A stretch of DNA of 32,000 nt from Candidatus Electrothrix yaqonensis (GTDB lineage Bacteria; Desulfobacterota; Desulfobulbia; Desulfobulbales; Desulfobulbaceae). Under the pieces are notes generated by a model. That model did no database searches and was not told the DNA's origin. It saw nothing but the letters and a program-made list of their open reading frames with translations. The stretch spans positions 2,490,001 through 2,522,000 of the forward strand of contig CP178758.1 of assembly GCA_047651235.1 (NCBI GenBank), read 5' to 3'. A program made the translations under genes and the position numbers. Positions 6,701 through 32,000 of the stretch are shown here, in pieces; position 1 is the stretch's first letter; every line of letters starts with the position of its first letter.

Positions 6701-7713
6701 GTTCGATAACCAGGGATTTCGGAGGAACCGGTCTCGGTCTTGCCATCAGCAACCGCCTGCTGCAGATGATGGGCAGTGAAATTCATCTGAAAAGCACGCT
6801 CGGCGAAGGAAGTATTTTTTCTTTTACCCTGCTGTTTAAGGAAGGGGCACAGGATACCGACGGTCCCAGGACTCAGAAAAAGCATGTCCCCCCTGATCGC
6901 TGTCTTGATATCCTGCTGGTTGAGGATAATCCTGCCAATCAGCAGCTCGCTCTAATTATTCTTGAAAAGCAGGGACATAATGTCAGCGTAGCCAATAACG
7001 GCCTGGAAACGCTTTCCTGTCTGAGCCGTCAGCGGTATGATCTTATTTTTATGGATATGCAGATGCCGGTGATGGACGGCCTGACCGCCACCCGGCATAT
7101 CCGGCGGATCGAGCAGGGATTTGCGGAAGAATTGCCTGAAATGGCTGCTGTCTCGGAACAGCTTCATGCCAGGCTGACCGGCGGACATGTTTATATTGTT
7201 GCTGTTACGGCCAATGCTATGTATGAGGACCGGAAGCAGTGTCTTGAGGCCGGGATGGATGAGTATCTCAGCAAGCCCTACAAGAAACATGCTCTTCTGA
7301 AAATATTGCACTTATTTGACAAAGAAACTATGTTATCTGTACCGGAGGCGGAAATGACTGAACAGGAAAAAGCCCCGGCTGTCTCATGGAATGAGGTGCT
7401 GGACCATCTTATAGGACAGTTTGAGCTGGAACGCGAAGATGCGGAGGCCGTGCTCGGCACCTATTCCGAATCTCTTGCCCGGAATATCGATATGCTGCGT
7501 GAGTATATCGCCAAGGGAGAGGGGGTGGAGGCCGGACGTCAGGCCCATGCCATGAAGGGAGGGCTGCTTAATCTGGGACTTGAGCAGCTTGCGGAAACAG
7601 CCTTTGCTCTGGAAAAGGAACTCCCCAAGGCAATAGAGAAAAAACATACAGAAATGATCGGGCAGCTTGCTCAGGCTCTTGTCGGGATAACCTCCGGACA
7701 CACCGGTTCCTGA
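3775..7713 (+). CDS. Hybrid sensor histidine kinase (TM-sensor-TM-HAMP-PASx3-HisKA-HATPase_c-REC-Hpt)
   Basis: 1312 aa. There are two TM helices flanking a sensor domain of about 260 aa, and a HAMP-like segment [17 protein letters not shown]. The H-box is [23 protein letters not shown], the N/G boxes are [10 protein letters not shown] and [15 protein letters not shown], the REC is [11 protein letters not shown]...[14 protein letters not shown]...KPY, and the Hpt is [13 protein letters not shown]. The start is ambiguous (ATG 3775, 3802 or 3847) and none has a strong SD. Confidence 0.9.
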
Positions 7714-15485: not shown

Positions 15486-17303
15486 ATGGCCGCAGCAAAG
15501 AAAAAACATGATTGTCCGTTACTGAAGTTTTTTCAGGGAGATTGTACCTGTTCCGCACCCGAACCGGAGCAGAAACCGGAACAGAAGGAGGATGATCCGG
15601 CTCCTGTACAGCCGCAACCGCCGGTAGAGGCAGCTGGCCAGGGGAAATCCCAAGAAGACTCCGGCGGTACTGCCCAGGTGGAAAAGGCTGAGGAGAAGAA
15701 GGAAAACGCTCCGCAGACCGATGTTCCCGCCCAGCCGGAGCCGCCGGTAGAGGCAACCGATCAGGAGAAGTCTGACGATACTCCCCAGGTGGAGGAGAGT
15801 GAGACTGAAAAACAGGAAAAGGAGGAGAACAGTCCGCAGGAAGATGAAGCGGTGATCAATGCTGCTCTGCAGGAATGTCAGAAGGATACTCCGGCATTTA
15901 TGGACAGACTGCCAGCCAAGTTTGATCCAGAGGGAAAGCGACTTGATCAAGGGACAGGCCTTTTTACTGAGGAGGCCATCAGGGAAAAGGAATTTATTCC
16001 GGCCCGTGATGACAAGCGGCAAGAGCTGACAGAGCTGGATGCGATTACAGCTGGCAGGGCTGCCTTTGCCGAGAATGATCAGGCGGACGGCTTTGTGGAC
16101 ACCTTCCGTCATGCCGGACTGAAGAGCATGGAGAATAACGGCCTGATGGGCGCCAGACTGCCTGAGCAGCCCTGGTCTGATGATTACTGGGCAATCTATC
16201 TGGGAATGCTCGGCAAACGCTATGCTGATCCGGGATTTCCCGGTGAATGGGACTGGAAGGTGAATTATGATTATATTCAGAGAAATCCGGCCCAACAGAT
16301 TGTGGCGAATGGAGACTCCAATGCCATAAACCGGCTTTCCCCGTCGGAAAAATACGATATTCTGGTCGGTGATGCGAATATGTCGCTCACTAAAAAAATG
16401 TGGGAGGAAGGAAAAGGGTATTATTCCCGGAACGGCACGGTGGAAACCTGGATGGGCCTCTGTCACGGCTGGGCACCGGCTGCGTATATGCTTCCCCGCC
16501 CGAAAAGAAGCGTCACGGTTCCTGCGGCGGACGGCAAAACTTCCATCACTTTTTACCCTGCTGATATCAAAGCGCTTGCCACCCTGCTCTGGGCCAAAGT
16601 CAGAACCACGACCGAATTTATCGGCGGCCGCTGTAATGACAAAAATCCGGCACGGGATCCGCAGACCGGACGTATTATCTCGCAGAACTGCTTTGATACC
16701 AATCCAGGTTCCTGGCATCTGGCCGTAGTCAACCAGATCGGTGCTTCACAGCGCAGTATGGTGCTGGATGCCACCTACGATTATGAGGTCTGGAATCAGC
16801 CCCTTGTTGCATATAACTACAGATATTTTAATCCGCAGAGAATGGTGTATGCCCGTTCTCTGCCTGAAGCGTCTGTGCTGAAGAGCAGTTTCGGCAATGA
16901 CTGGTTTATCCGCTACCGCAGTGGGGAAACCGAGACCATTGTCGGCATTGCAATGGATGTTTCCTATATGGTGGAAACCAGTCCTGCACAGTATTCCACA
17001 GACAGCGCCGCCCGGGACCGGGTGCAGACAGTGCGGTATTATTATGATCTTGAGCTTGATTTTACCGGGAATATTATCGGTGGCGAATGGTATCAGAATG
17101 CGCATCCGGATTTTCTCTGGACCCCTGTTAAAGGAGCCAGAGCCCTGACGTACTGGGAAGCCAGATATGGCCTGAGCGGAACATGGGAGGGGAACCAGCC
17201 GATGAATGAAGACTGGAGGCGGGTTGCTGCAACGATATCCGGATATCAGAAAGCACCCTTGGCTGCCATTGTGGAGCGGCTGATAGAATTGGCCAATGTT
17301 TAA
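15486..17303 (+). CDS. GP42/Pep-13-type transglutaminase family protein (TGase_elicitor-like), paralog 1, with acidic Q/K/P/E-rich N-terminal tail
   Basis: 605 aa with a strong RBS, AAGGAGGAG, before the ATG. Motifs are WMGLCHGWAPAAY, PGSWHLAVVNQIG and LDATYDYEVWNQPLVAYNYRY; compare Pep-13, VWNQPVRGFKVYE. No signal peptide is present. Confidence 0.75.
   Translation: MAAAKKKHDCPLLKFFQGDCTCSAPEPEQKPEQKEDDPAPVQPQPPVEAAGQGKSQEDSGGTAQVEKAEEKKENAPQTDVPAQPEPPVEATDQEKSDDTPQVEESETEKQEKEENSPQEDEAVINAALQECQKDTPAFMDRLPAKFDPEGKRLDQGTGLFTEEAIREKEFIPARDDKRQELTELDAITAGRAAFAENDQADGFVDTFRHAGLKSMENNGLMGARLPEQPWSDDYWAIYLGMLGKRYADPGFPGEWDWKVNYDYIQRNPAQQIVANGDSNAINRLSPSEKYDILVGDANMSLTKKMWEEGKGYYSRNGTVETWMGLCHGWAPAAYMLPRPKRSVTVPAADGKTSITFYPADIKALATLLWAKVRTTTEFIGGRCNDKNPARDPQTGRIISQNCFDTNPGSWHLAVVNQIGASQRSMVLDATYDYEVWNQPLVAYNYRYFNPQRMVYARSLPEASVLKSSFGNDWFIRYRSGETETIVGIAMDVSYMVETSPAQYSTDSAARDRVQTVRYYYDLELDFTGNIIGGEWYQNAHPDFLWTPVKGARALTYWEARYGLSGTWEGNQPMNEDWRRVAATISGYQKAPLAAIVERLIELANV
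15597..15845 (+). repeat. In-frame tandem duplication (about 123 nt / 41 aa x2) encoding an acidic P/Q/E/K-rich low-complexity region
   Basis: The 15-mer CCGCCGGTAGAGGCA occurs at 15618-15632 and 15741-15755. The peptide units are PAPVQPQPPVEAAGQGKSQED...ENAPQTD and VPAQPEPPVEATDQEKSDD...ENSPQED. Confidence 0.8.
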
Positions 17304-18351
17304 CTTTATTGATTTTTTTACATCCAGGTACCGGAAGATGCAGCCGAAACAGGAAGAACATCATGCCGTGGTCATCGGGATCAACGAGTACAGCGAGTAT
17401 CCTGCACTCAAGGGGCCAGTAACGGATGCCGAGGACTTTTACGCATGGCTCTGCGACCAGGAGGGCGGGAATCTGCCGGAAGAAAATATCCGGCGCCTGC
17501 TCTCTTCTGAAAGCGGGATAGAACAAAACGCTCTCACCCCGAACCGGATCGAGGCGCTGTTTGAACCCTTTGTCACTGCCGGTGTGCAGGGCAGGTTCGG
17601 CGAGCGGCTCTACGTGTTTATTGCCGGGCACGGGTTCGGGGATGCCGGAGATATGGGCCGTACAGCTCTGTATGCCGCCAATGCCAAAAAGCTGTTTCCC
17701 TGGCATGTGGCAGTGACGGATTATGTGGAATGGCTGCGGCGGCGGGCTGTTTTTGCCGAACTCGTGCTGATTATGGATTGCTGCCGCACGGTTAATCCGG
17801 TACATATGATCCGGGAACCGCAGTATCCCTTTATTGCCCGAAGAGGCGGGCACCCGGACGCGGACAAGGTGAAGTATTTCTATGCCTTTGCTGTGAGCAG
17901 AGGAAAGATCGCCAGAGAACGGCGGTTTGAGGATGGCCAGGAAGCCGGAATTTTTACCAGAACCCTGCTGAACGCTCTGAAAACCGCGCGTCCGGTCAAA
18001 GGACAGGTGACCGGGCAGGCATTGAAAGATCAGATTCATAATACGATTGACAAATTTGCCGATCAAGTGCAGATTGATCCTCCGGAGATCAGACTGGATT
18101 CGTCTCGGGATATTACTTTTCTGCGCCGTAAGTCGGCTGATTCGATGCCGGTCAGGGTCGTCGTGGAACCGTACAGGGGAGGGGAGACGTTGGTCCTTTT
18201 TGACGGCAGCTTCCGGGAAATTAGACGGGAACAGACTTCTGCCGCCACCACGACGCTGGAGCTGGAGCCGGGACTGTACAAACTTGCGGTCAGCGAGACA
18301 GGCCGTCAGCAGATATTTGAGGTGCCGAGTCATGAGCAGATTACAGTGTAG
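17296..18351 (+). CDS. Caspase-like cysteine protease (peptidase C14 / orthocaspase-like) with C-terminal beta-sandwich-like module
   Basis: HAVVIGINEY...L.GPVTDAEDF...LYVFIAGHG (His-Gly) ...LVLIMDCCRT (Asp-Cys). The C-terminal roughly 70 aa end in LELEPGLYKLAV. The ATG overlaps the upstream stop by 8 nt (ATGTTTAA); an alternative start is ATG 17338. Confidence 0.8.
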   Translation: MFNFIDFFTSRYRKMQPKQEEHHAVVIGINEYSEYPALKGPVTDAEDFYAWLCDQEGGNLPEENIRRLLSSESGIEQNALTPNRIEALFEPFVTAGVQGRFGERLYVFIAGHGFGDAGDMGRTALYAANAKKLFPWHVAVTDYVEWLRRRAVFAELVLIMDCCRTVNPVHMIREPQYPFIARRGGHPDADKVKYFYAFAVSRGKIARERRFEDGQEAGIFTRTLLNALKTARPVKGQVTGQALKDQIHNTIDKFADQVQIDPPEIRLDSSRDITFLRRKSADSMPVRVVVEPYRGGETLVLFDGSFREIRREQTSAATTTLELEPGLYKLAVSETGRQQIFEVPSHEQITV

Positions 18352-19474
18352 AGATCAGGTCAACCTGACAGTCAGAGCAGCGGACCTCCTGACCGAAATT
18401 TTTCTGGTGGACAGCGGCTTTCAGCGCATCGCCAGTGATGTCGGTCAGCTGGAGACAAAAATCGGGCCGGGTATATATAAGGCCCGTTTCCGGGTCGGAC
18501 AGCGGCAGATTGATCAGCTGATCGAAGTGAAAGCCGGAGCCGGGTCGTTGATTCTTGACGGCCCGGCTGTGGAGTTTGCTTCACCTGCTCCGCTGCCGCA
18601 GACTCTCACCCATCGGAAGAAGCATCAGGAGGCAGCACAGGACTTCTCCTGCGCTGTTCATCTCGAAAAAGGTAGCGGCAGTCAGCTGTACCTCTTTATC
18701 CGGGGACTGGAGGAATCTGCCCCGGCTCCCTGGACCGGCGTGTCATTACATGATCTTGACGGCAACTGGCTTGCCGGGCCGGAGCAAGGTGAATGTAACC
18801 AGGAGGACAACTTTTTCGCCCTCAATCTTGCACTTGATCCGGGCACCTACCGGTTGCGGGTTGAGGAAGAGCCGGGTGAAACTTATGAAATGTTTGTCAT
18901 CACGGCGGCAGGATGGCAGACGCAGATTTTTGCTCTGACAGAGGCTGGCTGGCTGCCGGGAGTTGAGACCTGCCGGGCTGCCCTGCCTACAGCGTCGGTA
19001 TTCATGGTCCGGGAAGGACAAGGTTTTACACCGGATGACGCTGCGTTCCGTCGGACGGAACTGCGTCGGCTCGGCCTGATGAGCAGGCGTAAGATCCTGA
19101 CGGAACGCACCGTAAACAGCCTGCTGAAAGAGCTGTCTCCGGATCCGATGGCGGCAATTTTTGCCGCCCATCTGCTGATGCGGCAGGAGCCTGCTGATTC
19201 TGCTGCTGCAACACTGCTGACCAAAGGACTGGCCCCGACCCTCAGAGAGCATCCGGATATTCAGGCCCTGCAACTGCACCAGGAACCGGGTATCCGGCCT
19301 GTTTTTCCGGCTCCGCCTATGCTCAACTTCAGCAGGGAATGTCTTGCGCAGGCAGCGGCCCGGGGAAAAGTCATTATCCCGCCGGGATCACTGACCTGGC
19401 AGATCATGGAGAAACAGGTCAATACTCCGTTGTGGTTTGTGCACCGGCTGGACAATATGGCTGCCGAAAAGTAA
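18332..19474 (+). CDS. Hypothetical protein: two beta-sandwich-like modules plus a helical C-terminal half
   Basis: The ORF is open from 18047, but ATG 18332 lies 7 nt after GAGGTG, and the upstream extension is Arg-rich out-of-frame junk. It overlaps the caspase gene by 20 nt. It contains GPGIYKARF and DPGTYRLRV motifs resembling the caspase C-terminus. I recognise no family. Confidence 0.6.
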   Translation: MSRLQCRDQVNLTVRAADLLTEIFLVDSGFQRIASDVGQLETKIGPGIYKARFRVGQRQIDQLIEVKAGAGSLILDGPAVEFASPAPLPQTLTHRKKHQEAAQDFSCAVHLEKGSGSQLYLFIRGLEESAPAPWTGVSLHDLDGNWLAGPEQGECNQEDNFFALNLALDPGTYRLRVEEEPGETYEMFVITAAGWQTQIFALTEAGWLPGVETCRAALPTASVFMVREGQGFTPDDAAFRRTELRRLGLMSRRKILTERTVNSLLKELSPDPMAAIFAAHLLMRQEPADSAAATLLTKGLAPTLREHPDIQALQLHQEPGIRPVFPAPPMLNFSRECLAQAAARGKVIIPPGSLTWQIMEKQVNTPLWFVHRLDNMAAEK

Positions 19475-19540
19475 TTCGGTTACCGGGCCGGGAAGAACAA
19501 TATCCCGGTCTTACTCAAGAAAAATCAGGAGGAAGGAATC

Positions 19541-21016
19541 ATGTCCGCAGTACAGGAAGAGCAGATGAACGAGGAGTTGAAGGCGTGTCAGGAGAATCCT
19601 GTGGAATTCATGGATCGGCTGCCGCCCAAGTATGATGGAGACGGAGAGACTCTGGATTCTTCCGGAGAGAGCCTGTTTGAGCAGGCTGCTGTTGAGAGCG
19701 GTGACCATATTGAGGCCCGTGATGTTCTGCGGCAGCAGGTAACCGTTAAGGATGAAGTCGCTGTGGGGCGGGCCGCTTTTGCGGATAACGATCAGGCAGA
19801 TGGCTTTGTCGATTCATTTCGTTATGCAGGCCTGCAGAGCATGGAGGCCAACGGCCTCATGCAGGGCGGGCTGAGTGAGTCGCCCTGGTCGGATGATTAT
19901 TGGGCTTTATATTCAGGATCGCTGGGAAAACGTTATGCAGACCCTGCTTTTCCCGGTTCTCAAGACTGGAAAGCGAACTACGATTACGTGCAGGCCCACT
20001 CCGCAGCCGGAATCTTAGGGAGCGGAAATACGGATGCGGTCAACCGGCTTTCCCCGGCGGAAAAATATGACATTCTGGTAGGTGACAGTGACTATTCGCT
20101 GACCCGGCAGATGTGGGAACTGGGAAGAACATACTATGTCCGCAACGGCAAAGTGGAAACATGGATGGGCCTCTGCCACGGCTGGGCACCGGCTGCCTAT
20201 ATGCTGCCCCGTCCGACAGGGACTGCCACTGTCCTGGCGGCAGACGGTCGAACCCGCCTCACCTTTTATCCTTCTGATATCAAAGCACTCGCCACCTTGC
20301 TCTGGGCAAAGACGAAATATAGCTCCCGGTTTATCGGCGGCCGCTGCAATGACCGCAATCCGGCAAAAGATCCGCAGAGCGGCCGGGTGCTTTCACAGAC
20401 ATGTTTTGATACCAATCCCGGCACCTGGCATCTGGCGGTCGTGAACCAGATCGGCGGGTCGCAGCGCAGCATGGTTATGGATGCCACCTATGATTATCAG
20501 GTCTGGAATCAACCGGTGGTGTCGTACAGCTATCGGTATTTCAACCCGAAAACCATGACCTATGCCGGTTCGCCGACAGAGGCTGCAGTGTCGCTCAGTA
20601 CGTTTGCCGAGGACAGGTTTGCCCGCTTCCGCAGCAGTGAAACAGACAGCATTGTCGGTATTATGATGGAGGCGAAATATACCGTCGAGACTGCTCCCAC
20701 GCACAATTCAACGGACAGCCCGGCGCGTGATCAGCTCAAGGCGGTCCGCTATTATTATGATCTTGAACTGGATTTTACCGGCAACATTATCGGCGGAGAA
20801 TGGTATCAGAATGCCCACCCGGATTTTCTCTGGACGCCTGTACAGGGCGAACGGGCCGTGACCTCCGGAGAAAAAAGATATCCGCTCAGCGGTTCCTGGC
20901 AGAGCGGCCAGACCATGCCGCAATCCTGGCAGCAGCTCGCCTCTATGGTGGCCAGGTATGAACAGGCCCCTCTTGCTGTGATTGTGGAGCAGCTGATCGC
21001 GTTTTCCAAGAGCTAA
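19541..21016 (+). CDS. GP42/Pep-13-type transglutaminase family protein (TGase_elicitor-like), paralog 2
   Basis: 491 aa with RBS AGGAGGAAGG. It is collinear with residues from about 121 to the end of paralog 1. Motifs are WMGLCHGWAPAAY, PGTWHLAVVNQIG and MDATYDYQVWNQPVVSYSYRY. No signal peptide and no acidic tail. Confidence 0.8.
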   Translation: MSAVQEEQMNEELKACQENPVEFMDRLPPKYDGDGETLDSSGESLFEQAAVESGDHIEARDVLRQQVTVKDEVAVGRAAFADNDQADGFVDSFRYAGLQSMEANGLMQGGLSESPWSDDYWALYSGSLGKRYADPAFPGSQDWKANYDYVQAHSAAGILGSGNTDAVNRLSPAEKYDILVGDSDYSLTRQMWELGRTYYVRNGKVETWMGLCHGWAPAAYMLPRPTGTATVLAADGRTRLTFYPSDIKALATLLWAKTKYSSRFIGGRCNDRNPAKDPQSGRVLSQTCFDTNPGTWHLAVVNQIGGSQRSMVMDATYDYQVWNQPVVSYSYRYFNPKTMTYAGSPTEAAVSLSTFAEDRFARFRSSETDSIVGIMMEAKYTVETAPTHNSTDSPARDQLKAVRYYYDLELDFTGNIIGGEWYQNAHPDFLWTPVQGERAVTSGEKRYPLSGSWQSGQTMPQSWQQLASMVARYEQAPLAVIVEQLIAFSKS

Positions 21017-22735: not shown

Positions 22736-22759
22736 TTGCTCACCTGAATCAGCCTCTGA

Positions 22760-22993
22760 TCAGTCCCTGAACAGGCCGGTACTGCCCCGCGCCCGGTGCT
22801 CACGCGCTGATTGCCGCTCTTCTCTGTTTTCTTCCGGTTCTTCCGGATACCAGCAGAGCACCAGAGTGATCAGGATAATAAGGGCAATACCGAAAAGTAC
22901 TGTTAATGTTGCTAAAATCGGCATACACTGGAGACACATACATCCGGGATAATGATTGGTTGCGGCTGTTCCGACTGGAAAAATATTTCCCAC
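22760..22993 (-). CDS. Small (77 aa) hypothetical membrane protein with CxCxxC motif
   Basis: GTG start 5 nt after a very good SD, AAGGAGG. The protein has PGCMCLQCMP, then one hydrophobic helix (ILATLTVLFGIALIILITLVLCW), then a charged tail. No homolog recognised. Confidence 0.45.
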   Translation of the reverse strand: MGNIFPVGTAATNHYPGCMCLQCMPILATLTVLFGIALIILITLVLCWYPEEPEENREERQSAREHRARGSTGLFRD

Positions 22994-23305
22994 AATTTCC
23001 TCCTTTTCTGAACAAATATTCTGCGGGAAGGTTCGGATTCAATAAATTGCAACTATCATACCGTAACAGGAGGATATTGCTTCGTGATTGCAGCATGATG
23101 GATAAGACATCATATCTTGACGGCATGTATATTTAATTTGCCGTATCAATAATATACTTCATTACCTCCTGGTAACTGTTTCCTTTCTTTGCCCCGACAG
23201 CTAGGATACTTTTTTCCCGACGGGTACAAAAAACTGAATAGTTTTTACCCGATTTTCCAGCCTGTTTCTCACGGACAGGATCTCTGCCCTGTTTCCTGAC
23301 ATCTC

Positions 23306-23334
23306 CTGCAATTTTCTGTGCAGAGAATTTGCAG
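23306..23334. promoter_or_regulatory. Imperfect 13-bp-arm inverted repeat CTGCAATTTTCTG-tg-CAGAGAATTTGCAG, containing copy 3 of TCTGTGCAGAG (23315-23325)
   Basis: The arms pair with one bulge and one T-G mismatch. It lies 82-110 nt upstream of the pilT-like ATG and just upstream of the putative promoter. Confidence 0.5.
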
Positions 23335-23351
23335 TTCAGGCAGGTTTCGCT

Positions 23352-23380
23352 TTTTCTTCATCTTCCAAGTATGGTATAGT
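23352..23380 (+). promoter_or_regulatory. Putative sigma70 promoter with extended -10 (TGgTATAGT) for the pilT pair
   Basis: TG at 23372-23373 and TATAGT at 23375-23380. The -35 is weak (TTTTCT, 17-bp spacer). Called by pattern match only. Confidence 0.3.
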
Positions 23381-23415
23381 TCGTTAAATTTTTTAATTTT
23401 ATACGGAGTGTTCCT

Positions 23416-24477
23416 ATGGCCCTACTGGATAAGGTGTTCAAGGCGGCAGTGGATCTCAAAGCGTCCGACCTCCATGTGCTGCCGGGCGAACCGTTTATGG
23501 TTCGCCGACTCGGTACGATGATCAGGCTGAAAAGCCAGCCCCTGACAGCAGACACCTGCCGCAAGGTGATTCTGGAAATTCTGACCCCGGAACAGCGGCG
23601 CATCCTGAGCGAGGAAATGCAGCTGGACTTTGCCTACGAGATCAAGGGGCTGGGCAGATTCCGAGGTAGCGCCATGTTTCACAACAACGGCATGAGCTGC
23701 ATCTTTCGGGCAATACCGGATAAAATTCCCTCATTTGATGAGCTGGGACTTCCTGAGGTAATGTATAAAATTCTGGAAAATCATCAGGGAATTGTCCTGG
23801 TTACCGGTGCCACCGGGCACGGCAAGACGACCACGTTGGCCTCTATGGTTGACTACATCAACAGCAACCACTCCCATCATGTCCTGACCGTGGAGGACCC
23901 CATTGAGTTTATTCATCCGTTAAAAAAAGGGGCCATCAATCAGCGGCAGATCGGCAAAGACACCCTGTCCTACGGCAATGCCCTCAAGGGGGCGCTGCGC
24001 CAGGATCCAGATGTCATTGTCATCGGTGAGCTGCGCGACCTTGACACCATCTCCTTGGCCATCTCGGCCTCGGAAACCGGCCATCTGGTCATCGGCACCC
24101 TGTCCACTTCCAGTGCTCCCAAAACCGTGGACCGGATCATTGATTCCTATCCTCCGGGTGAGCAGAATCAGATCCGGGCGATGCTCAGTGAATCCCTGAA
24201 AGCCGTGTTCACCCAGCGGCTGCTCCCGGCCAAGGACGGCTCCTGCATGTACCTTGCTGCCGAGGTCATGATCGGTAATCTGTCCATCGCCAATCTGATC
24301 AAAGACAACAAGACCTTCCAGATCCGTTCCACCATGCAGATGGGCACGGCTCTGGGCATGAAGCTGATGGATGAATCTGTCCTTGCACTGCTCAAAGAGG
24401 AAAAGATCAGCTTGGAGACAGCTCAGGCTAATATCGATAAAAAAGAGCTGCTCAAGCCTTTCATGGCCAAAGCCTGA
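23416..24477 (+). CDS. PilT-family type IV pilus retraction ATPase paralog (divergent motifs)
   Basis: 353 aa. SDLHV..GEP...R, Walker A GATGHGKTT, Asp box LTVEDPIEF, Walker B DVIVIGELRD, and a His-box region HLVIGTLSTSSAPKTVDRIID. Confidence 0.85.
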   Translation: MALLDKVFKAAVDLKASDLHVLPGEPFMVRRLGTMIRLKSQPLTADTCRKVILEILTPEQRRILSEEMQLDFAYEIKGLGRFRGSAMFHNNGMSCIFRAIPDKIPSFDELGLPEVMYKILENHQGIVLVTGATGHGKTTTLASMVDYINSNHSHHVLTVEDPIEFIHPLKKGAINQRQIGKDTLSYGNALKGALRQDPDVIVIGELRDLDTISLAISASETGHLVIGTLSTSSAPKTVDRIIDSYPPGEQNQIRAMLSESLKAVFTQRLLPAKDGSCMYLAAEVMIGNLSIANLIKDNKTFQIRSTMQMGTALGMKLMDESVLALLKEEKISLETAQANIDKKELLKPFMAKA

Positions 24478-24494
24478 GAACACGGGGGAATATC

Positions 24495-25556
24495 ATGGCA
24501 ATTATTGACAAGTATTTTCGGGAAATGAAAGAACGCGGAGCCAGTGATCTGCATATGGTGATCGGTTTCCAGCCTCTGCTGCGCCTGCGGGGCGAACTGG
24601 TGCCGCTGGACGAACCGGTACTGACGCCGGAGAGCAACAAAAAAATCCTCTTTGAAATTCTTGATCAGGATCAGCAGGCTGCTACGGAGAAAAATCGGGA
24701 TTTTGACAAGGCGTATGCTTTGGACGGCGTGGGCCGGTTCCGCTGTAATTTTCTGTACCAGCATCGGGGTATCGGCGCGGTATTCAGGATTATTCCGGCC
24801 AAAATCCTGACCGTAGATCAGCTGAACATGCCGGACGTGGTCAGGAGCTTTGCCGATTATGTGCGCGGGCTGGTTCTGGTCACCGGGCCGACCGGCAGCG
24901 GCAAGTCAACCACTATGGCCGCGATCATCGACCTGATCAACGACAAACATGCCAAGCACATCATCACCATTGAGGATCCGCTGGAATTTGTCCATCCCAA
25001 TAAAAAATGCATCTTTTCCCAGCGCGAAGTCGGCTCTCATGCCAAAAGTTTTGCCAAAGCACTGGCTGTGGCAAACCGGGAAGATCCGGACATTATTCTG
25101 GTCGGTGAGATGCGGGATCTGGAGACCATTTCTCTGGCCCTGACCTGCGCAGAACTGGGTATTCTGGTCTTCGGTACCCTGCATACCAACAGCGCGGCCA
25201 AGACTATTGACCGGATCATCAATGCCTTTCCGGCGGATGAGCAGGCCCAGACCAGAACCATGCTGGCTGACTCGCTCAAGGGCGTCATTGCCCAGCAGCT
25301 CCTTAAAACCAAGGACGGCAAGGGCCGCTGCGCTGCCCTGGAAATCCTGATCGGCTCCAATGCACTGGCCAGCATCATCCGGGAAGGCAAGATCAACCAG
25401 ATTGAGTCCATGATCCAGACCGGTACCTCGCAGGGGATGCAGACTATGGACCAGCATCTGCAGCAGCTCATTGACGAGGACAAAATCACGGTTGCTGCAG
25501 CGCGGGAAAAGGCGATCAACAAAGGTCTGTTCCCGCTGCCGGATGAGGAAGAGTAA
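24495..25556 (+). CDS. pilT: Type IV pilus twitching motility ATPase PilT
   Basis: 353 aa with canonical Walker A GPTGSGKSTT, ITIEDPLEF, DIILVGEMRD, GTLHTNSAAKTIDRIIN and AALEILIG..A..IIREGK..QI. Confidence 0.9.
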   Translation: MAIIDKYFREMKERGASDLHMVIGFQPLLRLRGELVPLDEPVLTPESNKKILFEILDQDQQAATEKNRDFDKAYALDGVGRFRCNFLYQHRGIGAVFRIIPAKILTVDQLNMPDVVRSFADYVRGLVLVTGPTGSGKSTTMAAIIDLINDKHAKHIITIEDPLEFVHPNKKCIFSQREVGSHAKSFAKALAVANREDPDIILVGEMRDLETISLALTCAELGILVFGTLHTNSAAKTIDRIINAFPADEQAQTRTMLADSLKGVIAQQLLKTKDGKGRCAALEILIGSNALASIIREGKINQIESMIQTGTSQGMQTMDQHLQQLIDEDKITVAAAREKAINKGLFPLPDEEE

Positions 25557-25622: not shown

Positions 25623-26438
25623 GTGACAGCACAAACTGTATCTCCGCACAAAACAACTTTGGACAAAGGAAATGCCTACTGGATGGCCAGGATGGCCGAA
25701 GCGGTCTACATGAAAGTAGACAACGGTACACGACCGGACGAAGAAAAGATTCTTCAGGGTCTGAAACAGGAGGATGACAGATTTTCTTCCGTAACCGGTT
25801 TTGACAATAAAAGCTCCCAAGCAGCCCTGGTGGAGCATAACGATTATATCTGCATGGCCTTCCGGGGCACCGATGAGCTGGAAGACTGGCTGGACAATAT
25901 AAAAATCACTGCAACCAAGCAGCTGTTCGGCCATTTTCATCTCGGATTCTGGGAAGCTGTGCAGGACATCTGGCCGCCCATGCTTGCCTGTTATGAGGAG
26001 GCGCAGAAGAACGGCAGCCGTCCGCTTTTTATTACCGGTCACAGTCTGGGCGGAGCTATGGCGACCATAGCTGCGGCCATTATGATGCATGAAAATAAAG
26101 CTGTTGCCAGTGTCTATACTTTCGGTCAGCCCCGAACCATGCGGCCGCTTACCTCAATGAAGTTCAATACTAAGTGTAAAAATATTTTTTTCCGATTTCA
26201 TAATAACAATGATATTGTCACCAGAATTCCCGCAAGGATAGCCGGTTACAGTCATGTCGGCACCTACCTCTATATCTCCCAGGAAGAGACCATTTATGAA
26301 GAAGTAGGGTGCTGGTTCAGATTTCTTGATTATGTTGACGGAGCGATCAGTGATTTGGGAGAAAAGGGCATGGATATGCTCAAGGACCATAGTATGAAGA
26401 ACTATCTGGAAGCAGTCAAAAAGTGGGACTTTAAGTGA
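25623..26438 (+). CDS. Class 3 lipase / alpha-beta hydrolase (Lipase_3 family)
   Basis: GTG start after AGGAGA. AFRGTDELEDWLDN, a nucleophile elbow ITGHSLGGAMA, FHNNNDIVTRIP (catalytic Asp region), and DHSMKNY (catalytic His region). Confidence 0.8.
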   Translation: MTAQTVSPHKTTLDKGNAYWMARMAEAVYMKVDNGTRPDEEKILQGLKQEDDRFSSVTGFDNKSSQAALVEHNDYICMAFRGTDELEDWLDNIKITATKQLFGHFHLGFWEAVQDIWPPMLACYEEAQKNGSRPLFITGHSLGGAMATIAAAIMMHENKAVASVYTFGQPRTMRPLTSMKFNTKCKNIFFRFHNNNDIVTRIPARIAGYSHVGTYLYISQEETIYEEVGCWFRFLDYVDGAISDLGEKGMDMLKDHSMKNYLEAVKKWDFK

Positions 26439-26460
26439 TCTTTTCTGACAGATTCTCCTC

Positions 26461-29400
26461 TTGACAGCAAAGAAACCACATATTAACCAGACGACCGGTG
26501 GAATTCCCGCTCTGCGGGGGTTCCGTAAGCAATTTTTGCATACGCTGAACAGGATTCTATCTTCAGAAACAGGGCATTTCTATCCTGAAAGTTTGGAAGA
26601 TTTTTCGGTTTATGACAGTACCGGAAAACCGCTTGAAATTGTTCAGGTTAAAGACTACAAGGCCCCTCTGACATTTTCAGCATTAAACAAAGCGGGAAAG
26701 GGGAAGAATTCTGGAAAGAACTTTTTTGAACGTGCTGCTGAATACATCACGCGCTATCATGATGTTCAGGTTGTTCTGGCAAGTTATGGAGAGCTGGGGC
26801 CGGAATTGCAGGAGTGCATAGGTGTCGATGAAGCGACGCTGAAGAAAAATAAAAAATTCAACAAACCAGAACTGCTGAATGTCTTTCAGCGGCTCGAATA
26901 TCGTCCTCTCAAAGAGCAGGGCGAACGCAATTCTATCCAAGAACACCTCACCCAGTTTCCTCTGATAACTGGTAATTGGCAGGCAGCCTTTGACCTGCTT
27001 ATGCAGGAACTTTACCGTGGCGCTGAACAGGAAAAGGGCTATACCCGGCAGGACTTGCTGGAACGCTTGCAGCAGATCGGCCAATATTTTGCCGAACGTG
27101 AAGCGCATCATAGGGAATGGGGCACGACCATCATCCCGCTGCTGGAGCAAGAAATTGATGACGAGGAACAACTGCGCAGCGCGTTTCATGAAGGTGTATC
27201 AGTTGGCTGGCGGCATATTCTGTCTGATCTGGATGTTAAACGCCAGCAGCACTTGGGTGCTATTCAAGAAGGATTCAGGAAAACACAGATTGTCGTCGTT
27301 CATGGCGCATCCGGGCAGGGAAAGTCCGCCTTGGCCTATCGCTACCTGCACGATTACTGTCCTGCTGCTTCGTATGAAATTCGAGATTTAAGCACTGCAA
27401 AACGAGCGTTGGAAGTAGCTACAGCTCTTTCCGGGTATAATATTCCTTTCACCTTTTATGTTGATGCCAGTCATAATGATAAAGGACTTTCTGAGTTTTT
27501 ACGACGTATTGATGAGCTGAAGCATATCCGTTGCCTTGTCACCATTCGGGAAGAAGACTGGCGGCTGACCGGAATAACTTCGGCTGACATTACCTTTGCA
27601 GATGTAGAGCTTGTTTTTAACCGCGAAGAAGCACAGGAGCTTTATGCAGCATGGGGAAACGCAAAAGGCTGTCGTTTTCCTGATTTTGAACAGGCTTGGG
27701 CAAAATTTTCAGAAGAAGGCCCTTTGCTGGAATTCGTCCATCTGCTGACACACACACAGAATTTACGGAATCGCTTACAGCAACAGTATGAGCAGATTGC
27801 CGGTGAGGTTGATCGTCAGCAACGGTCAGGAAATGATCTAAAGTTAATTCGGCAGGTTGCAGTGGCTGGTACTTGCGGTGCCCGTATTGATTTAGCCAAG
27901 TTAGCTCAACTGCCCGGCAACGCGACGTTGAAACAATCAATTAACCGTTTAGAAAAAGAATATTTGCTGCGGCGCAGCAATGATGCCCGTCATCTAACAG
28001 GATTACATCCTGTCCGTTCCGAAGTCCTCACTTCAATTATTGCAGATCCTGTCCTGTGTCCTTGGGAAACATTGGCGTTAGAATGCCTGCCCTTGCTGGA
28101 AGATGCAGATGTAGAAATCTTCCTTTTGCATATCTTCCGGTTCTATCCAGAGGCTACGAATGCCGTTCTTTCACATTTGAACACGGAAAAATACGAAACT
28201 TGGCTTGCGGCAAACGGTGTGTTGCGTTCCTTGTTATGGCTTGGGATATATGAGTATGTTTATGAAAATGAAGGGATAATTAGAAAACTTGCTGAAATAT
28301 ATACTGGAGGATGGCTTGTTGTTTTAGACTTTGTCGATTTTATAGGAGCACTGGATGAACCAATAGATTTTGTCAAGCTTCTTCCAGAGGAAGAAAGAGC
28401 GCAGGCGGAAAAAAAGATTGAGCACTGGCGAAGTGAGAAGACTCATAAAGATAGGGTATTCGTGCGAGTTGACGAGTGGTTGCAAAAAATTTCGCTTCCT
28501 CTTATTCCTTCCTATGAAAACGAAGAAGGCTGGAATGAATTTGGTCAGGTTGTGTATTGGCTGGGATTCAGAAAGATCGACAAAAGGATAGACGGATTTC
28601 TTGATTGGAATGGTCTTCGGCAAACTATAGAAGCATTGCCTATAGACACCCTGGCAACTCTGATTTACGGTTTATGGCAATTTTTTTCAGATGTTGACGT
28701 GTTTATTGATTGGTACAAAGATATTCGCCCGGCATTGCTTGATCGTTACCGCAGGGAAACAAATACGCCATATCTTGAAGAACAAGAAGGGGGTATTCGG
28801 GCGCATTTTATTGTGCCGTTAGATGATGAAACTGAAAAGTCAGGTGACTCTAATTCTGCTGAAAATAACTGGTTTCATGATATGGCGATGGAGCATGTTG
28901 ACCTTTTAGCGCAATTAATTCCTGATTGTACAGGGTATGGTTGCCAAGGATATGGACATCAGGTTCTTGATATTGAGTATCCTTATGATGATACGACTAA
29001 AAAAAATATTTCGGCCAGTCACTTGAAACCAAGCTGGGTAATGCATGTTAATAAAACGGCTCGCATTCTTGCAGATCACCTGTTCAGACCAGCAACATGG
29101 CAGGATTATAGCAATCAGATATTTAAAATACGAAATGATGCTGTGTTGTGTCTCGATAATCTCCGCCGGAACTTAGAAAAGCATTTCCACAGTAAAAAAG
29201 TTGTTCAGCAACTCACTACACTTTACGATACTGTAGATTGGAAGAAGGCTTTTCAGCAGGTCAGCCGCCGATCTTCCTTCCCGCTGGAGGCACTTGATCA
29301 TTTTGGGTATACAGAAGAAAACCAGAAGAATATGGTGACTGAAGGTTCTGGTGGCAGGAGAAAAGAAATTTTTATTTCCGCATACCTACAACGGTATCAT

Positions 29401-30675
29401 GTATATCTTCATGAGCAAAGAGAGTATTTTAACGGTATACAAAATTTTTCCGACCAAGCAGCATCTTTGATGATAGCAAATGCCTTGCTTGGCAAAGCTA
29501 AAACACCTAAGAAGCGCATTAAAATTAAGCAAAAAATTGAGGAGGTAAATTTAAAACTCAGCAGACCTCTCCTGCCAGCTTTCAACCTAATGGCATCCAT
29601 AAAACATCTCCAGCAGTTTCAATCCTCCTTCCGCAAGCATTTTTCCAGCCTGATAGACAACGAAGAGCTTTCTCAATTGGAACATAGGGAGCGTAAAATA
29701 CTTCACTCCCTATGGCCCTTGTGGTTCTGTTTTGAGAAAACCCCAAACCGCCGAATGCCTGCTCCTGGGAAAACTGCATCAGATCAATTGAAGCAACGGA
29801 AAAAGGTTCTTCGGAGTAAGCTGGAAAAGGCATTGAAAAAGGCTTCAACGGAAAAACTTCAATTTAAAATATTGGGAGATTCTATTGAATTCGACAGCAA
29901 GCCTGCGCTGTGGATAACGATAGATGGCGAGAATCCACTGGAAGTATATACACAGACAAAAAGCCTTTTTGTCCTGATGCAAAATTCTTTGGGCGAAATC
30001 AAACTGCACTCACTTGATCATTTTTCCTTGGAATTTCAATGGCAAAATCTTCTCCTGGTGCCAAGATGCAAAGGAAAGCTGCTGGAACCTCACGCATGGG
30101 TGATCCCTATTCATAAGTTCATCAGCCAGTTAAATGGAGATAAGGGGTTGGGTGCTCATAACTTAATCCCACGGCAAATTGGGCAGGAAAATTTGGAGGC
30201 TTTAGGGGTAAAAGTATGGGAGCCCGTACTGCTCAATGATGGAAAAATGTTTCTCAAGAGTTATGCCACATTGCAGATACGTCTTCGGCATCTGGTGCAA
30301 CTAAGAAATATCAAGAAGAAAGATGATCTTAGTGAAGAAATTATTCAATTCTATTTCAATCAAACAAAAAACGAGTTGAATGGAAATATTCAACAATTGC
30401 TTAATCAGATAGAAAAAATATTCTCTTTAAATAGCCAACTATCCGGCATGGCTGATAAAAACAAGCATGAATATTTAAAACTTGCCGCAGATCAACTATT
30501 TAAAATTAATAAGCAATTAATTCCAGAGTATTTAAAAAATGGTCAAGCTGTTATGACCTATGAAACCATGAAAGAATGGCAGGAACAGCTTTTGTCTGTT
30601 CAAGATACGGTGTTTGTCATCTATCTCTACTGGTGCGGATATGCTATTCATCGCTATAATTCTGGTATCCAATGA
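26461..30675 (+). CDS. Large STAND-like P-loop NTPase with N-terminal Cap4/DUF4297-like PD-(D/E)xK nuclease motif and long helical C-terminal region (candidate Avs-like antiviral protein)
   Basis: 1404-aa uninterrupted ORF. The N-terminus is GGIPALRGFRKQFLHTL...ESLEDFSVYD-x7-EIVQVKDY (26593-26652). Walker A is HGASGQGKSALAY (27304-27327). Walker B-like is FTFYVDAS (Asp codon 27463-27465), followed by RCLVTIREEDW. About 1000 aa of helical sequence follow, in which I recognise no domain. The only in-frame start near the 5' end is TTG 26461, and it has no clear SD. The distal part has lower GC than the flanks. Confidence 0.6.
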   Translation: MTAKKPHINQTTGGIPALRGFRKQFLHTLNRILSSETGHFYPESLEDFSVYDSTGKPLEIVQVKDYKAPLTFSALNKAGKGKNSGKNFFERAAEYITRYHDVQVVLASYGELGPELQECIGVDEATLKKNKKFNKPELLNVFQRLEYRPLKEQGERNSIQEHLTQFPLITGNWQAAFDLLMQELYRGAEQEKGYTRQDLLERLQQIGQYFAEREAHHREWGTTIIPLLEQEIDDEEQLRSAFHEGVSVGWRHILSDLDVKRQQHLGAIQEGFRKTQIVVVHGASGQGKSALAYRYLHDYCPAASYEIRDLSTAKRALEVATALSGYNIPFTFYVDASHNDKGLSEFLRRIDELKHIRCLVTIREEDWRLTGITSADITFADVELVFNREEAQELYAAWGNAKGCRFPDFEQAWAKFSEEGPLLEFVHLLTHTQNLRNRLQQQYEQIAGEVDRQQRSGNDLKLIRQVAVAGTCGARIDLAKLAQLPGNATLKQSINRLEKEYLLRRSNDARHLTGLHPVRSEVLTSIIADPVLCPWETLALECLPLLEDADVEIFLLHIFRFYPEATNAVLSHLNTEKYETWLAANGVLRSLLWLGIYEYVYENEGIIRKLAEIYTGGWLVVLDFVDFIGALDEPIDFVKLLPEEERAQAEKKIEHWRSEKTHKDRVFVRVDEWLQKISLPLIPSYENEEGWNEFGQVVYWLGFRKIDKRIDGFLDWNGLRQTIEALPIDTLATLIYGLWQFFSDVDVFIDWYKDIRPALLDRYRRETNTPYLEEQEGGIRAHFIVPLDDETEKSGDSNSAENNWFHDMAMEHVDLLAQLIPDCTGYGCQGYGHQVLDIEYPYDDTTKKNISASHLKPSWVMHVNKTARILADHLFRPATWQDYSNQIFKIRNDAVLCLDNLRRNLEKHFHSKKVVQQLTTLYDTVDWKKAFQQVSRRSSFPLEALDHFGYTEENQKNMVTEGSGGRRKEIFISAYLQRYHVYLHEQREYFNGIQNFSDQAASLMIANALLGKAKTPKKRIKIKQKIEEVNLKLSRPLLPAFNLMASIKHLQQFQSSFRKHFSSLIDNEELSQLEHRERKILHSLWPLWFCFEKTPNRRMPAPGKTASDQLKQRKKVLRSKLEKALKKASTEKLQFKILGDSIEFDSKPALWITIDGENPLEVYTQTKSLFVLMQNSLGEIKLHSLDHFSLEFQWQNLLLVPRCKGKLLEPHAWVIPIHKFISQLNGDKGLGAHNLIPRQIGQENLEALGVKVWEPVLLNDGKMFLKSYATLQIRLRHLVQLRNIKKKDDLSEEIIQFYFNQTKNELNGNIQQLLNQIEKIFSLNSQLSGMADKNKHEYLKLAADQLFKINKQLIPEYLKNGQAVMTYETMKEWQEQLLSVQDTVFVIYLYWCGYAIHRYNSGIQ

Positions 30676-32000
30676 ATAAGCAACCCCAAACTCCCCAATT
30701 CCTTGCCGCCGTTGATCTCGGCTCCAACAGCTTCCACATGGTTGTTGCCCGCATTGAAGACGGGCATATCCACATCCTGGACAAGCTGAAAGAGATGGTG
30801 CGTCTCGGTGCCGGACTGGATAAGCGCGGTCGGCTTTCCGCAGAAGCCCGCCAGTGCGCCCTTGCCTGTCTGCGCCGTTTCGGCGAGCGGGTGCGGAATT
30901 TTCCTGCCGGGACGGTAGCCGCTGTGGGCACGAAAACGCTGCGGCAGGCTAAGAAATCCCGGCGTTTTGTAGAGCAGGCCGGGCAGGCTCTGGGCCATCC
31001 GATTGCCGTCATCGGCGGGAAAGAGGAAGCCCGCCTGGTGTATCTGGGCGTTTCCCATTCCCTGGCAGCTGCGGGCGGCAGGCGCTTTGTCATGGATATC
31101 GGCGGCGGCAGTACTGAGCTGATTATCGGAGAAGATTTTGAGCCGCTGCACCTGCACAGCCTGAATATGGGCTGTGTCAGCATGAGCCGTCAGTGCTTCC
31201 GCAACGGCAGCCTGAACCAGAAAAACTGGAAAAAGGCTTCCATTGCAGCTCACCTGGAACTGCGTCCGGTGCGGTATGCGTTTCAACAGGCAGGCTGGGA
31301 TTCCGCCACCGGGGCCTCCGGTACGATCAAGGCTGTGGGCAGCGTTGTGCAGGCGCTCGGCCTTGCGCCTTACACCATCACCCTGGACAGTCTGGACAGG
31401 ATACGCAAACTGATGACCGCTGCCGGACACCTGGACAATCTTGATCTGCCCGGCCTGAAAACAGAGCGCAAGCCTGTTTTTGCCGGAGGACTGGCTGTCC
31501 TTATTGCCGTGTTTGAGGCTCTGAAAATCGAGAGCATGCAGATCTCCGACGGGGCTTTGCGGGAAGGGCTGCTCTATGAACGACTGGGCCGCATCAGAAG
31601 CGAGGATACCCGGTTAACGACTGTTGCCGGTGTACAGCAACGCTTCCAGCTCAGCCGCCGACATGCTGATCGGGTGACCGAAACAGCGCGTCGGCTCTTT
31701 GCTGCCTGTGAAGCAGCATGGAATTTGGCTCCAGAAGATGCTGAACTGCTCTACTGGGCAGGCAGTCTGCATGAGATCGGCCTTGCGGTTTCTCTGAGCG
31801 GATACCAGAAACACGGTGCCTATCTCCTGGACCACGCTGATCTGCCCGGATTTTCTTTTGCCGAGCAGGAGCAGATGAGCGTGCTGGTCCGTTGCCATCG
31901 CAAGAAGCTGTCGAAAAGTCTGTTCAGAAAAATCCCCGCTGAACGGCGGCAGACTGTCCTGCGGCTTGCGGTCCTGCTGCGCCTTGCTGCGCTGCTGCAT
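30672..32000 (+). CDS. ppx: Exopolyphosphatase / guanosine pentaphosphate phosphohydrolase (Ppx/GppA family), 5' partial
   Basis: This gene is not in the supplied ORF track because it has no stop in the window. I translated it by hand: MNKQPQTPQFLAAVDLGSNSFHMVVARIEDG...MDIGGGSTELIIGE...ISDGALREGLLYE...GSLHEIGLAVS. The frame stays open to 32000. Its ATG overlaps the upstream TGA (ATGA). Confidence 0.9.
   Translation, partial: MNKQPQTPQFLAAVDLGSNSFHMVVARIEDGHIHILDKLKEMVRLGAGLDKRGRLSAEARQCALACLRRFGERVRNFPAGTVAAVGTKTLRQAKKSRRFVEQAGQALGHPIAVIGGKEEARLVYLGVSHSLAAAGGRRFVMDIGGGSTELIIGEDFEPLHLHSLNMGCVSMSRQCFRNGSLNQKNWKKASIAAHLELRPVRYAFQQAGWDSATGASGTIKAVGSVVQALGLAPYTITLDSLDRIRKLMTAAGHLDNLDLPGLKTERKPVFAGGLAVLIAVFEALKIESMQISDGALREGLLYERLGRIRSEDTRLTTVAGVQQRFQLSRRHADRVTETARRLFAACEAAWNLAPEDAELLYWAGSLHEIGLAVSLSGYQKHGAYLLDHADLPGFSFAEQEQMSVLVRCHRKKLSKSLFRKIPAERRQTVLRLAVLLRLAALLH

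Follow-up and report, generated by a model that had tools for sequence, protein, structure and literature searches.

A candidate Avs-type STAND receptor with a predicted Cap4-type nuclease domain in the cable bacterium Candidatus Electrothrix yaqonensis

Within a 32,000-nucleotide (nt) stretch of the genome of the cable bacterium Candidatus Electrothrix yaqonensis (assembly GCA_047651235.1, contig CP178758.1, positions 2,490,001 to 2,522,000 of the forward strand; hereafter the window, numbered from its first letter), a single open reading frame (ORF) of 1404 codons encodes a protein that is 100% identical to the hypothetical protein ACL93V_11875 of Candidatus Electrothrix sp. YB6, a cable bacterium. 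A prior interpretation of this DNA, made without database searches (the sequence-only reading), had grouped this ORF with a class-3 lipase gene lying 22 nt upstream as a candidate defence locus. Here we present evidence that the 1404-residue protein joins a predicted nuclease, a STAND NTPase and a presumed sensor in one polypeptide, and that the lipase is an independent gene which happens to lie beside it.

Results

Three predicted regions in one polypeptide

The STAND gene and the features assigned to it are as follows.

26461..30675, + strand: STAND gene, a single ORF of 1404 residues with three regions (Cap4 nuclease, STAND NTPase, sensor-like C-terminal region)
26461..27165, + strand: predicted Cap4/DUF4297-type nuclease domain, residues 1-235 (AlphaFold2 model, Foldseek, family profile)
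26587..26652, + strand: predicted nuclease active-site segment, residues 43-64, with E43, E46, D47 ... E59, Q62, K64 (PE.LEDF ... EIVQVK)
27166..28065, + strand: STAND NTPase, residues 236-535, with nucleotide-binding domain, helical domain and winged helix (Pfam nSTAND_NTPase5, PDB folds)
27304..27327, + strand: Walker A motif GASGQGKS with K288, unchanged throughout 36 diverse homologues
27448..27471, + strand: Walker B strand FTFYVDAS, D335 invariant
27538..27561, + strand: sensor-1 strand VTIREEDW, with R363, E364, E365 and D366 invariant
27718..27738, + strand: GxP-type motif GPLLEFV of the helical domain, with P421, L422, E424 and F425 invariant
28000..28020, + strand: winged-helix histidine motif GLHPVRS, with H516 and R519 invariant, in the predicted strand-helix of the winged helix
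28066..30672, + strand: C-terminal region, residues 536-1404, presumed sensor, modelled as helical arrays and two alpha/beta subdomains
28771..29013, + strand: first alpha/beta subdomain, residues 771-851, holding YGCQGYGH (28936-28959), D843 and K847
29857..30225, + strand: second alpha/beta subdomain, residues 1133-1255, from the secondary structure of the model

The motifs by which the sequence-only reading had recognised a Cap4/DUF4297 nuclease, GGIPALRGFRKQF, LEDFSVYD and EIVQVK (with E59 and K64), are all present in the protein. Direct scans of the N-terminus against Pfam, NCBIfam and PADLOC gave no match, and Pfam returned zero families for residues 1-240 even at E<=10, so that this domain is recognisable only through a family alignment, its profile and a structure model. 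An alignment of 36 diverse homologues shows no variation at Q24, E43, E46, D47, Q62 and K64, and conservation of at least 90% at E59. Searched against PDB sequences, the profile of this alignment matched Lamassu LmuA (9ux7) at E=1.5e-3 and, at E=3e-3, a DUF4297 protein (9c1m), the aligned columns comprising G-[FY]-x-x-Q, PE..ED and Q-V-K, with Q62-V63-K64 sitting on the Q-V-K of LmuA. In the LmuA protein of V. cholerae the lysine equivalent to K64, K57 of the Q-x-K motif, is essential (10.1101/2025.04.02.646746). Pfam Cap4_nuclease (PF14130) is matched by 20 of the 36 family members, at best with 4.5e-6. The AlphaFold2 model of residues 1-238 is confident, with a predicted local distance difference test (pLDDT) score of 88.7 and a predicted template modelling (pTM) score of 0.82, and a Foldseek search of the PDB with this model placed exclusively Cap4-type structures at ranks 1-23 (HerA-DUF4297, LmuA, HamA, the N-terminus of Avs3 (8dgc) and Cap4), after which the E-value jumps from 0.02 to 0.26. 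Together, the model, the 23 best structural matches, the family profile and the PF14130 matches of the relatives support the assignment of the N-terminus to the Cap4/DUF4297-type PD-(D/E)xK nucleases, with predicted activity. The earlier proposal for this domain, which a lack of profile similarity would have undermined, is thereby upheld.

The nucleotide-binding motifs RCLVTIREEDW (with R363), GASGQGKS and FTFYVDAS were likewise verified at the residue numbers first given to them. A sensor-1 arginine, a GxP motif and a winged-helix histidine are said to define STAND proteins, reportedly since the work of Leipe and colleagues in 2004. In this family the NTPase motifs are kept across homologues of only ~30% identity, G420-P421 of the GxP motif being invariant or nearly so, and the model of residues 236-1404 predicts a strand-helix nucleotide-binding domain. 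Pfam nSTAND_NTPase5 (PF25199) is the best NTPase family match, but the window protein lies just below its gathering threshold of 34 bits, scoring 31.8 bits at full length and 33.7 bits when the region is scanned alone; in the source database PF25199.2 is a precomputed annotation of the window protein and of most homologues. The best Foldseek matches of the module in the PDB are Avs4 (8dgf, 7.6e-5), the STAND-like ATPase PAB2304 from an archaeon (2qen, 1.4e-4) and Avs5 (9jap, 2.2e-4). The invariant hallmark motifs, the near-threshold nSTAND5 score and these fold matches support the STAND NTPase that had been proposed on motifs. A literature search for nSTAND5 or PF25199 returned no paper on the function of the clade.

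The remainder of the protein had been described as about 1000 residues of helical sequence with no recognised domain. A long region of this kind does follow the NTPase, but it measures ~870 residues and is not purely helical, since the model of residues 236-1404 (1169 residues; pLDDT 88.8, pTM 0.85) contains the two alpha/beta subdomains listed above. In the first of these, Y831, G832 and D843 are invariant, and G830, H833 and K847 are at least 90% conserved. Foldseek matches of this model in the PDB were confined to the NTPase, leaving the C-terminal region without a solved structural relative; the profile of residues 236-1404 found P-loop matches only among PDB sequences, and a PDB sequence search with the full protein found only spurious matches to CENP-X. 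Identity between cable-bacterium species falls to 57-67% in the C-terminal region, from 81-88% in the Cap4 and NTPase parts, with the C-terminal region diverging roughly three times as fast as the N-terminal half (effector plus NTPase). The C-terminal region is nonetheless under purifying selection, because its ratio of nonsynonymous to synonymous substitution rates (dN/dS) is 0.18-0.29; it thus evolves faster while remaining constrained, as expected of a sensor.

Relation to characterised systems

According to the models and the Foldseek matches, the single polypeptide runs from an effector through a STAND NTPase to a presumed sensor of at least 400 residues, which is an Avs-type layout. SeAvs3 (8dgc) and SeAvs7 likewise carry a Cap4-type nuclease, a STAND NTPase and a large C-terminal sensor in one polypeptide. 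They differ from the window protein in that no sequence match joins them to it, either through the PADLOC Avs models or in PDB searches that used either the full protein or profiles of residues 1-238 and 236-1404, and in that its NTPase probably belongs to the nSTAND5 clade and its C-terminus is not a plain tetratricopeptide-repeat (TPR) solenoid and matches no solved sensor. EcAvs4 (8dgf) and EfAvs5 (9jap, 9nc9) are the best solved fold matches of residues 236-1404, by way of the NTPase module, but their effectors are an Mrr-type nuclease and SIR2, and global template modelling scores of 0.15-0.28 mean that the NTPase core alone is held in common. Cap4 of the cyclic-oligonucleotide-based antiphage signalling system (CBASS), Lamassu LmuA, HerA-DUF4297 and Hachiman HamA have the same nuclease fold and the same motif, G-[FY]-x-x-Q ... 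E-D ... Q-x-K; whereas these are controlled by SAVED and cyclic oligonucleotides, by the SMC-like LmuB/C, by HerA and by the HamB helicase, none of those partners is present here, and control would pass to the fused STAND NTPase.

Assignment to several named systems was considered and rejected. Avs types 1-5 (AVAST) have no PADLOC 2.0 family that matches at E<=1. For Lamassu, LmuB and LmuC are missing, the neighbours are the lipase, PilT-type ATPases and Ppx, and PADLOC gave no match. For CBASS Cap4, a STAND NTPase instead of SAVED follows the nuclease, and the window holds no CD-NTase. The STAND protein is an uncharacterised addition to a known, Avs-type kind, an unnamed family outside PADLOC 2.0, and not part of any lipase-STAND system. 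A 2026 survey by Lee et al. (PMC13581612), seeded with Cap4-containing proteins, recognised 589 clades of prokaryotic STAND proteins, of which 198 are defence-associated, and the present family is very probably inside that data set.

A uniform, patchily distributed single-gene family

An exhaustive HMMER search, with counts given as cluster representatives, recovered 1233 members at E<=1e-3 and 503 at the stricter E<=1e-30. Nearly all have ~1400 residues, and the NTPase starts near residue 230-250; their only annotation is 'hypothetical protein'. In a taxonomic scan with one genome per species, relatives occurred in 164 species, distributed patchily over more than 10 phyla. Carriers include cable bacteria, Thiomargarita, Parabeggiatoa, numerous filamentous cyanobacteria and Chloroflexota, Geobacterales, Acidobacteriota, Bacillota, Sorangium, Pseudoalteromonas, Thalassotalea and, among archaea, a metagenome-assembled genome of Methanosarcina. 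Two full-length copies are on plasmids, both annotated as hypothetical protein. A clear effector swap was seen once in this otherwise uniform family, in P0037 (1501 residues, NCBI, from a 6.1 kb contig), which is 49% identical over the NTPase and sensor and has CHAT, a caspase-like protease, instead of Cap4.

No conserved neighbour gene was found in 80 STAND loci (L001-L080) from many phyla, the commonest cluster being generic TPR proteins at 10 of the 80, and the family is on this account a single-gene system. In a crude and semi-quantitative comparison that counts models instead of genes and takes nearby ORFs as its control, the 144 ORFs nearest to family members match 479 PADLOC models, against 94 for 144 more distant ORFs (E<=1e-10). 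The matches near the family comprise type I restriction-modification, Septu PtuA, DRT reverse transcriptases, Cas1, MADS, SoFic and Avs1a/LmuA.

Three further observations concern the distribution. Judged by the record titles of L001-L080, the family appears concentrated in filamentous or multicellular lineages (the cable bacteria, Thiomargarita, Parabeggiatoa, filamentous cyanobacteria, Chloroflexota, Sorangium and Ktedonobacteraceae), with unicellular taxa and the Methanosarcina genome represented too. On the Pseudanabaena plasmid NZ_AP017562.1 (L166; 12305-18645, 1107-5145) the STAND gene adjoins a 1412-residue DEAD/DEAH helicase, two S-adenosylmethionine-dependent methyltransferases and an AAA-ATPase/VWA set, a neighbourhood that looks like a cluster of conflict systems. 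Finally, MT836892.1 (H8), an unannotated 8.7 kb contig titled 'Bacteriophage sp.' from a human faecal sample, encodes at 5104-6942 a partial match to Cap4 and NTPase sequence (residues 20-636, 24% identity, E=9e-33).

The uniformity of the family also bears on whether the gene is functional at all. Its start codon is TTG, no clear Shine-Dalgarno sequence precedes it and its product scores under Pfam thresholds, as might be expected if it were an inactive remnant or a mis-called ORF. Such an origin is scarcely credible: a frame of 1404 codons cannot have arisen by chance in DNA of 43% guanine plus cytosine (GC), the frame is intact, hundreds of homologues have the same length and layout, catalytic and nucleotide-binding residues are in place, both structure models are confident, and dN/dS against three orthologues is ~0.2, indicating purifying selection.

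The upstream lipase is an independent gene

The genes that flank the STAND gene are these.

25623..26438, + strand: class-3 lipase gene, 271 residues (Pfam Lipase_3 at 8e-25)
23416..25556, + strand: two genes for PilT-type (T2SSE) ATPases, at 23416-24477 and at 24495-25556 (context only)
30672..32000, + strand: ppx/gppA, context only, continuing past the end of the window

The lipase ORF, whose GTG start has an upstream Shine-Dalgarno sequence (AAGGAG), lies on the same strand as the 1404-residue ORF, and the 22-nt gap and coordinates first noted for the pair are correct. Like other members of the class-3 lipase family (PF01764), its product has a GHSLGG nucleophile elbow and an invariant Ser-Asp-His triad, made up of Ser141 in GHSLGG (26037-26054), Asp197 (26211-26213) and His256 (26388-26390); it differs from the family at large in belonging to a compact subfamily of ~270 residues. 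Over 32 lipase homologues S141, D197 and H256 are invariant and mean column identity is 74%, and members from Vibrio, Shewanella and Marinomonas (Gammaproteobacteria), Nitrospirota and Thermodesulfobacteriota remain 55-64% identical, a degree of conservation unlike that of a defence effector, to judge from the alignments. No signal peptide was seen by eye.

The sequence-only reading had joined the two genes in one candidate locus, leaving it open whether the lipase was a second effector or an unrelated passenger. The lipase could in principle be a membrane-attacking second effector activated by the STAND protein, and lipase-type effectors do occur in other defence systems. The single strand, the 22-nt spacing, the lack of a predicted terminator between the genes and the lower GC of both genes relative to their flanks all speak for such a two-gene system. 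We nevertheless regard it as very unlikely, since the pair does not recur: a lipase homologue lies within 10 kb in 0 of the 80 STAND loci, four other cable-bacterium loci among them, and a STAND gene is present in 0 of 84 independent lipase loci. The full set of 85 lipase loci (644 kb) contains one STAND gene, in L083, which is the same organism in another assembly. Furthermore, the lipase is highly conserved across phyla with no conserved neighbour (no consistent neighbour gene accompanies its close orthologues), and the STAND protein already has an effector domain of its own. The two-gene locus is thus not borne out, and it is the passenger option that holds. The lipase is an independent, strongly conserved, stand-alone cytoplasmic hydrolase and neither a second effector nor a STAND component, and the two genes sit side by side through a chance of local gene order, in this organism only. 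The two genes may still be co-transcribed here, given that no terminator is predicted between them.

Two observations on lipase relatives may be recorded. A ThsB-like TIR gene sits 1.7 kb away from the homologue P0127 (L084 and L085, 8497-8913), and distant relatives at 30-35% identity from marine metagenomes (L096-L165) have small-ORF neighbours in common, on contigs that may be viral.

Composition and surroundings of the site

From pilT through ppx, all genes have the same orientation, no gap between them exceeds 66 nt and no terminator among them is convincing, and the ATG of ppx overlaps the stop of the STAND gene as ATGA (30672-30675), so that the STAND gene may share a transcript with housekeeping genes; promoter and terminator scans of the locus gave chance-level results only. 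The STAND gene has a GC fraction of 0.43 and a GC fraction at third codon positions (GC3) of 0.40, against 0.55-0.59 and 0.60-0.70 in the flanks. The same dip is found in its orthologues at four loci (L001, L002, L007 and L008) that between them represent E. gigas, E. marina, Electronema and Thiomargarita, which means that low GC travels with the gene and is no sign of a recent insertion. Neither tRNAs, nor Rfam families, nor bounding repeats were found that would mark the low-GC segment as a mobile insertion.

What varies at the site is the stretch upstream of the STAND gene: KptA/Tpt1 takes that position in E. gigas and E. marina, and pilT-pilT-lipase takes it in YB6; the syntenic loci of E. 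marina and E. gigas lack the two PilT-type ATPase genes. In those two species a KptA/Tpt1 RNA 2'-phosphotransferase gene (PF01885, 2e-53) lies on the same strand 37-40 nt upstream of the orthologue (L002:9419-9961, L007:9407-9964), an adjacency that may reflect chance or a lineage-specific partner. As a general partner of the family it was rejected, being present in just 2 of the 80 loci and absent from this one.

Elsewhere in the window, the 680-nt stretch from panE to the first pilT (22736-23415) is GC-poor (~0.47), has no convincing ORF, tRNA or Rfam match, and coincides with the break point of gene order relative to E. marina and E. gigas. Positions 15486-21016 hold two TGase_elicitor-domain genes (15486-17303 and 19541-21016), which the E. 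gigas and E. marina loci likewise hold in two copies, together with a caspase-like Peptidase_C14 gene (~17338-18351, per the L083 gene calls) and an unannotated ORF of ~380 residues.

Discussion

We consider it probable, at roughly 0.68, that the 1404-codon gene encodes a stand-alone, single-protein Avs-type STAND receptor, with a Cap4 effector, an nSTAND5-clade NTPase as its switch and a presumed sensor of ~870 residues, and that the upstream lipase is independent of it. A role in antiviral defence is inferred from pointers that are indirect: the Cap4 effector, the CHAT swap, the patchy distribution and plasmid copies, the GC3 dip, the defence-gene neighbours and the fast-evolving C-terminus. 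Lee et al. (PMC13581612) take a STAND protein to be antiviral on the basis of either defence-gene association or a defence-type effector; this family has the effector, through its Cap4 domain, and shows the association only semi-quantitatively (479 versus 94 PADLOC models). The label of a novel STAND defence protein, applied by the sequence-only reading, is a fair one to the extent that the protein lies outside Avs1-5 and the PADLOC 2.0 families and has an Avs-type architecture, the defence role itself being inferred.

Mechanistically, the protein probably works like SeAvs3 and SeAvs7, in which a phage protein binds the sensor and ATP-dependent tetramerisation leads to DNA cleavage by Cap4 (PMC13581612). 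By analogy with these two proteins, it would rest as an ADP-bound, autoinhibited monomer until an invader-derived ligand, most likely a conserved phage protein, binds the C-terminal region and opens the NTPase. ATP binding would then drive oligomerisation and bring the Cap4 domains together as an active nuclease, and the assembled nuclease would cut double-stranded DNA, thereby aborting infection.

A number of observations weigh against a defence receptor of this kind. Neither the lipase nor the STAND protein matches any PADLOC 2.0 model at E<=1. On its own the window protein does not match PF14130, and it falls below the Pfam thresholds for both Cap4_nuclease and nSTAND5. The N-terminal effector is nearly always Cap4, unlike the promiscuous swapping seen in, for example, Avs7, and the enrichment of defence models among the neighbours carries the crudeness described above. 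Signalling and housekeeping genes, and not a defence island, make up its neighbourhood in this genome, no terminator is predicted before it, and no mobile-element boundary is visible around it. It is also present in at least nine cable-bacterium assemblies, most of those sampled; panE and ppx enclose it in E. marina as they do in YB6, and the E. gigas copy again comes after panE, though with a downstream neighbour other than ppx. Its rate of evolution is similar to that of panE, under purifying selection. Retention in most sampled cable bacteria, with one chromosomal site in E. marina and E. gigas and a panE-like rate, makes this gene more core-like than most defence genes.

The shared site in E. 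marina and E. gigas also shows that the gene is no recently arrived island in the pilT-ppx interval, and the idea that this interval might be empty in other genomes is not supported. Of the proposition that a core gene pair conserved across the lineage would speak against a defence locus, one half applies: the pair is not conserved, but the STAND gene by itself occurs across cable bacteria.

The same retention invites a different account, in which the architecture stands as described and the protein is not mainly anti-phage, serving multicellular filamentous bacteria instead as a switch for suicide or self-surveillance that their lineages maintain (to control kin or conflict, to sense damage or to bring about programmed cell death), and an endogenous small molecule or nucleic acid would be sensed by its conserved C-terminal pocket. 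The family appears concentrated in filamentous and multicellular lineages, but unicellular taxa, an archaeon and plasmids carry it as well; the gene is kept at a syntenic site across cable bacteria under purifying selection and is embedded among housekeeping genes, but defence genes are enriched beside family members. Although the invariant polar and glycine-rich motifs (YGCQGYGH, D843, K847, N864, R876, R891) occur in an alpha/beta subdomain and not in plain TPR repeats, Avs proteins that recognise conserved phage folds typically have conserved sensors too. All characterised Cap4-STAND proteins are antiviral (PMC13581612), and we hold the switch to be unlikely relative to an Avs-type receptor. 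More doubtful still is a specific version of it, in which the C-terminal region would be a STAND sensor of a new kind, the alpha/beta pocket formed by these same residues would bind a small molecule or a nucleic-acid end rather than a phage structural protein, and the protein, kept vertically in cable bacteria and other filamentous lineages, would be a cell-suicide switch by which a multicellular filament is cleared of infected or damaged cells. If it were true, the suicide-switch reading could bear on the empty 'ghost cells' described in cable bacteria.

For the cataloguing of defence systems, the lipase-STAND pairing should be left out. Heterologous tests of the STAND protein should be feasible, as several members of the family come from cultured Gammaproteobacteria (Pseudoalteromonas, Thalassotalea). 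Should the Avs-type receptor prove antiviral, the family would constitute a large, phylogenetically broad and structurally uniform Avs-type group with a sensor fold missing from solved structures; and for the cable bacteria, on whose defence systems a literature search found no paper, it would provide a first handle on immunity.

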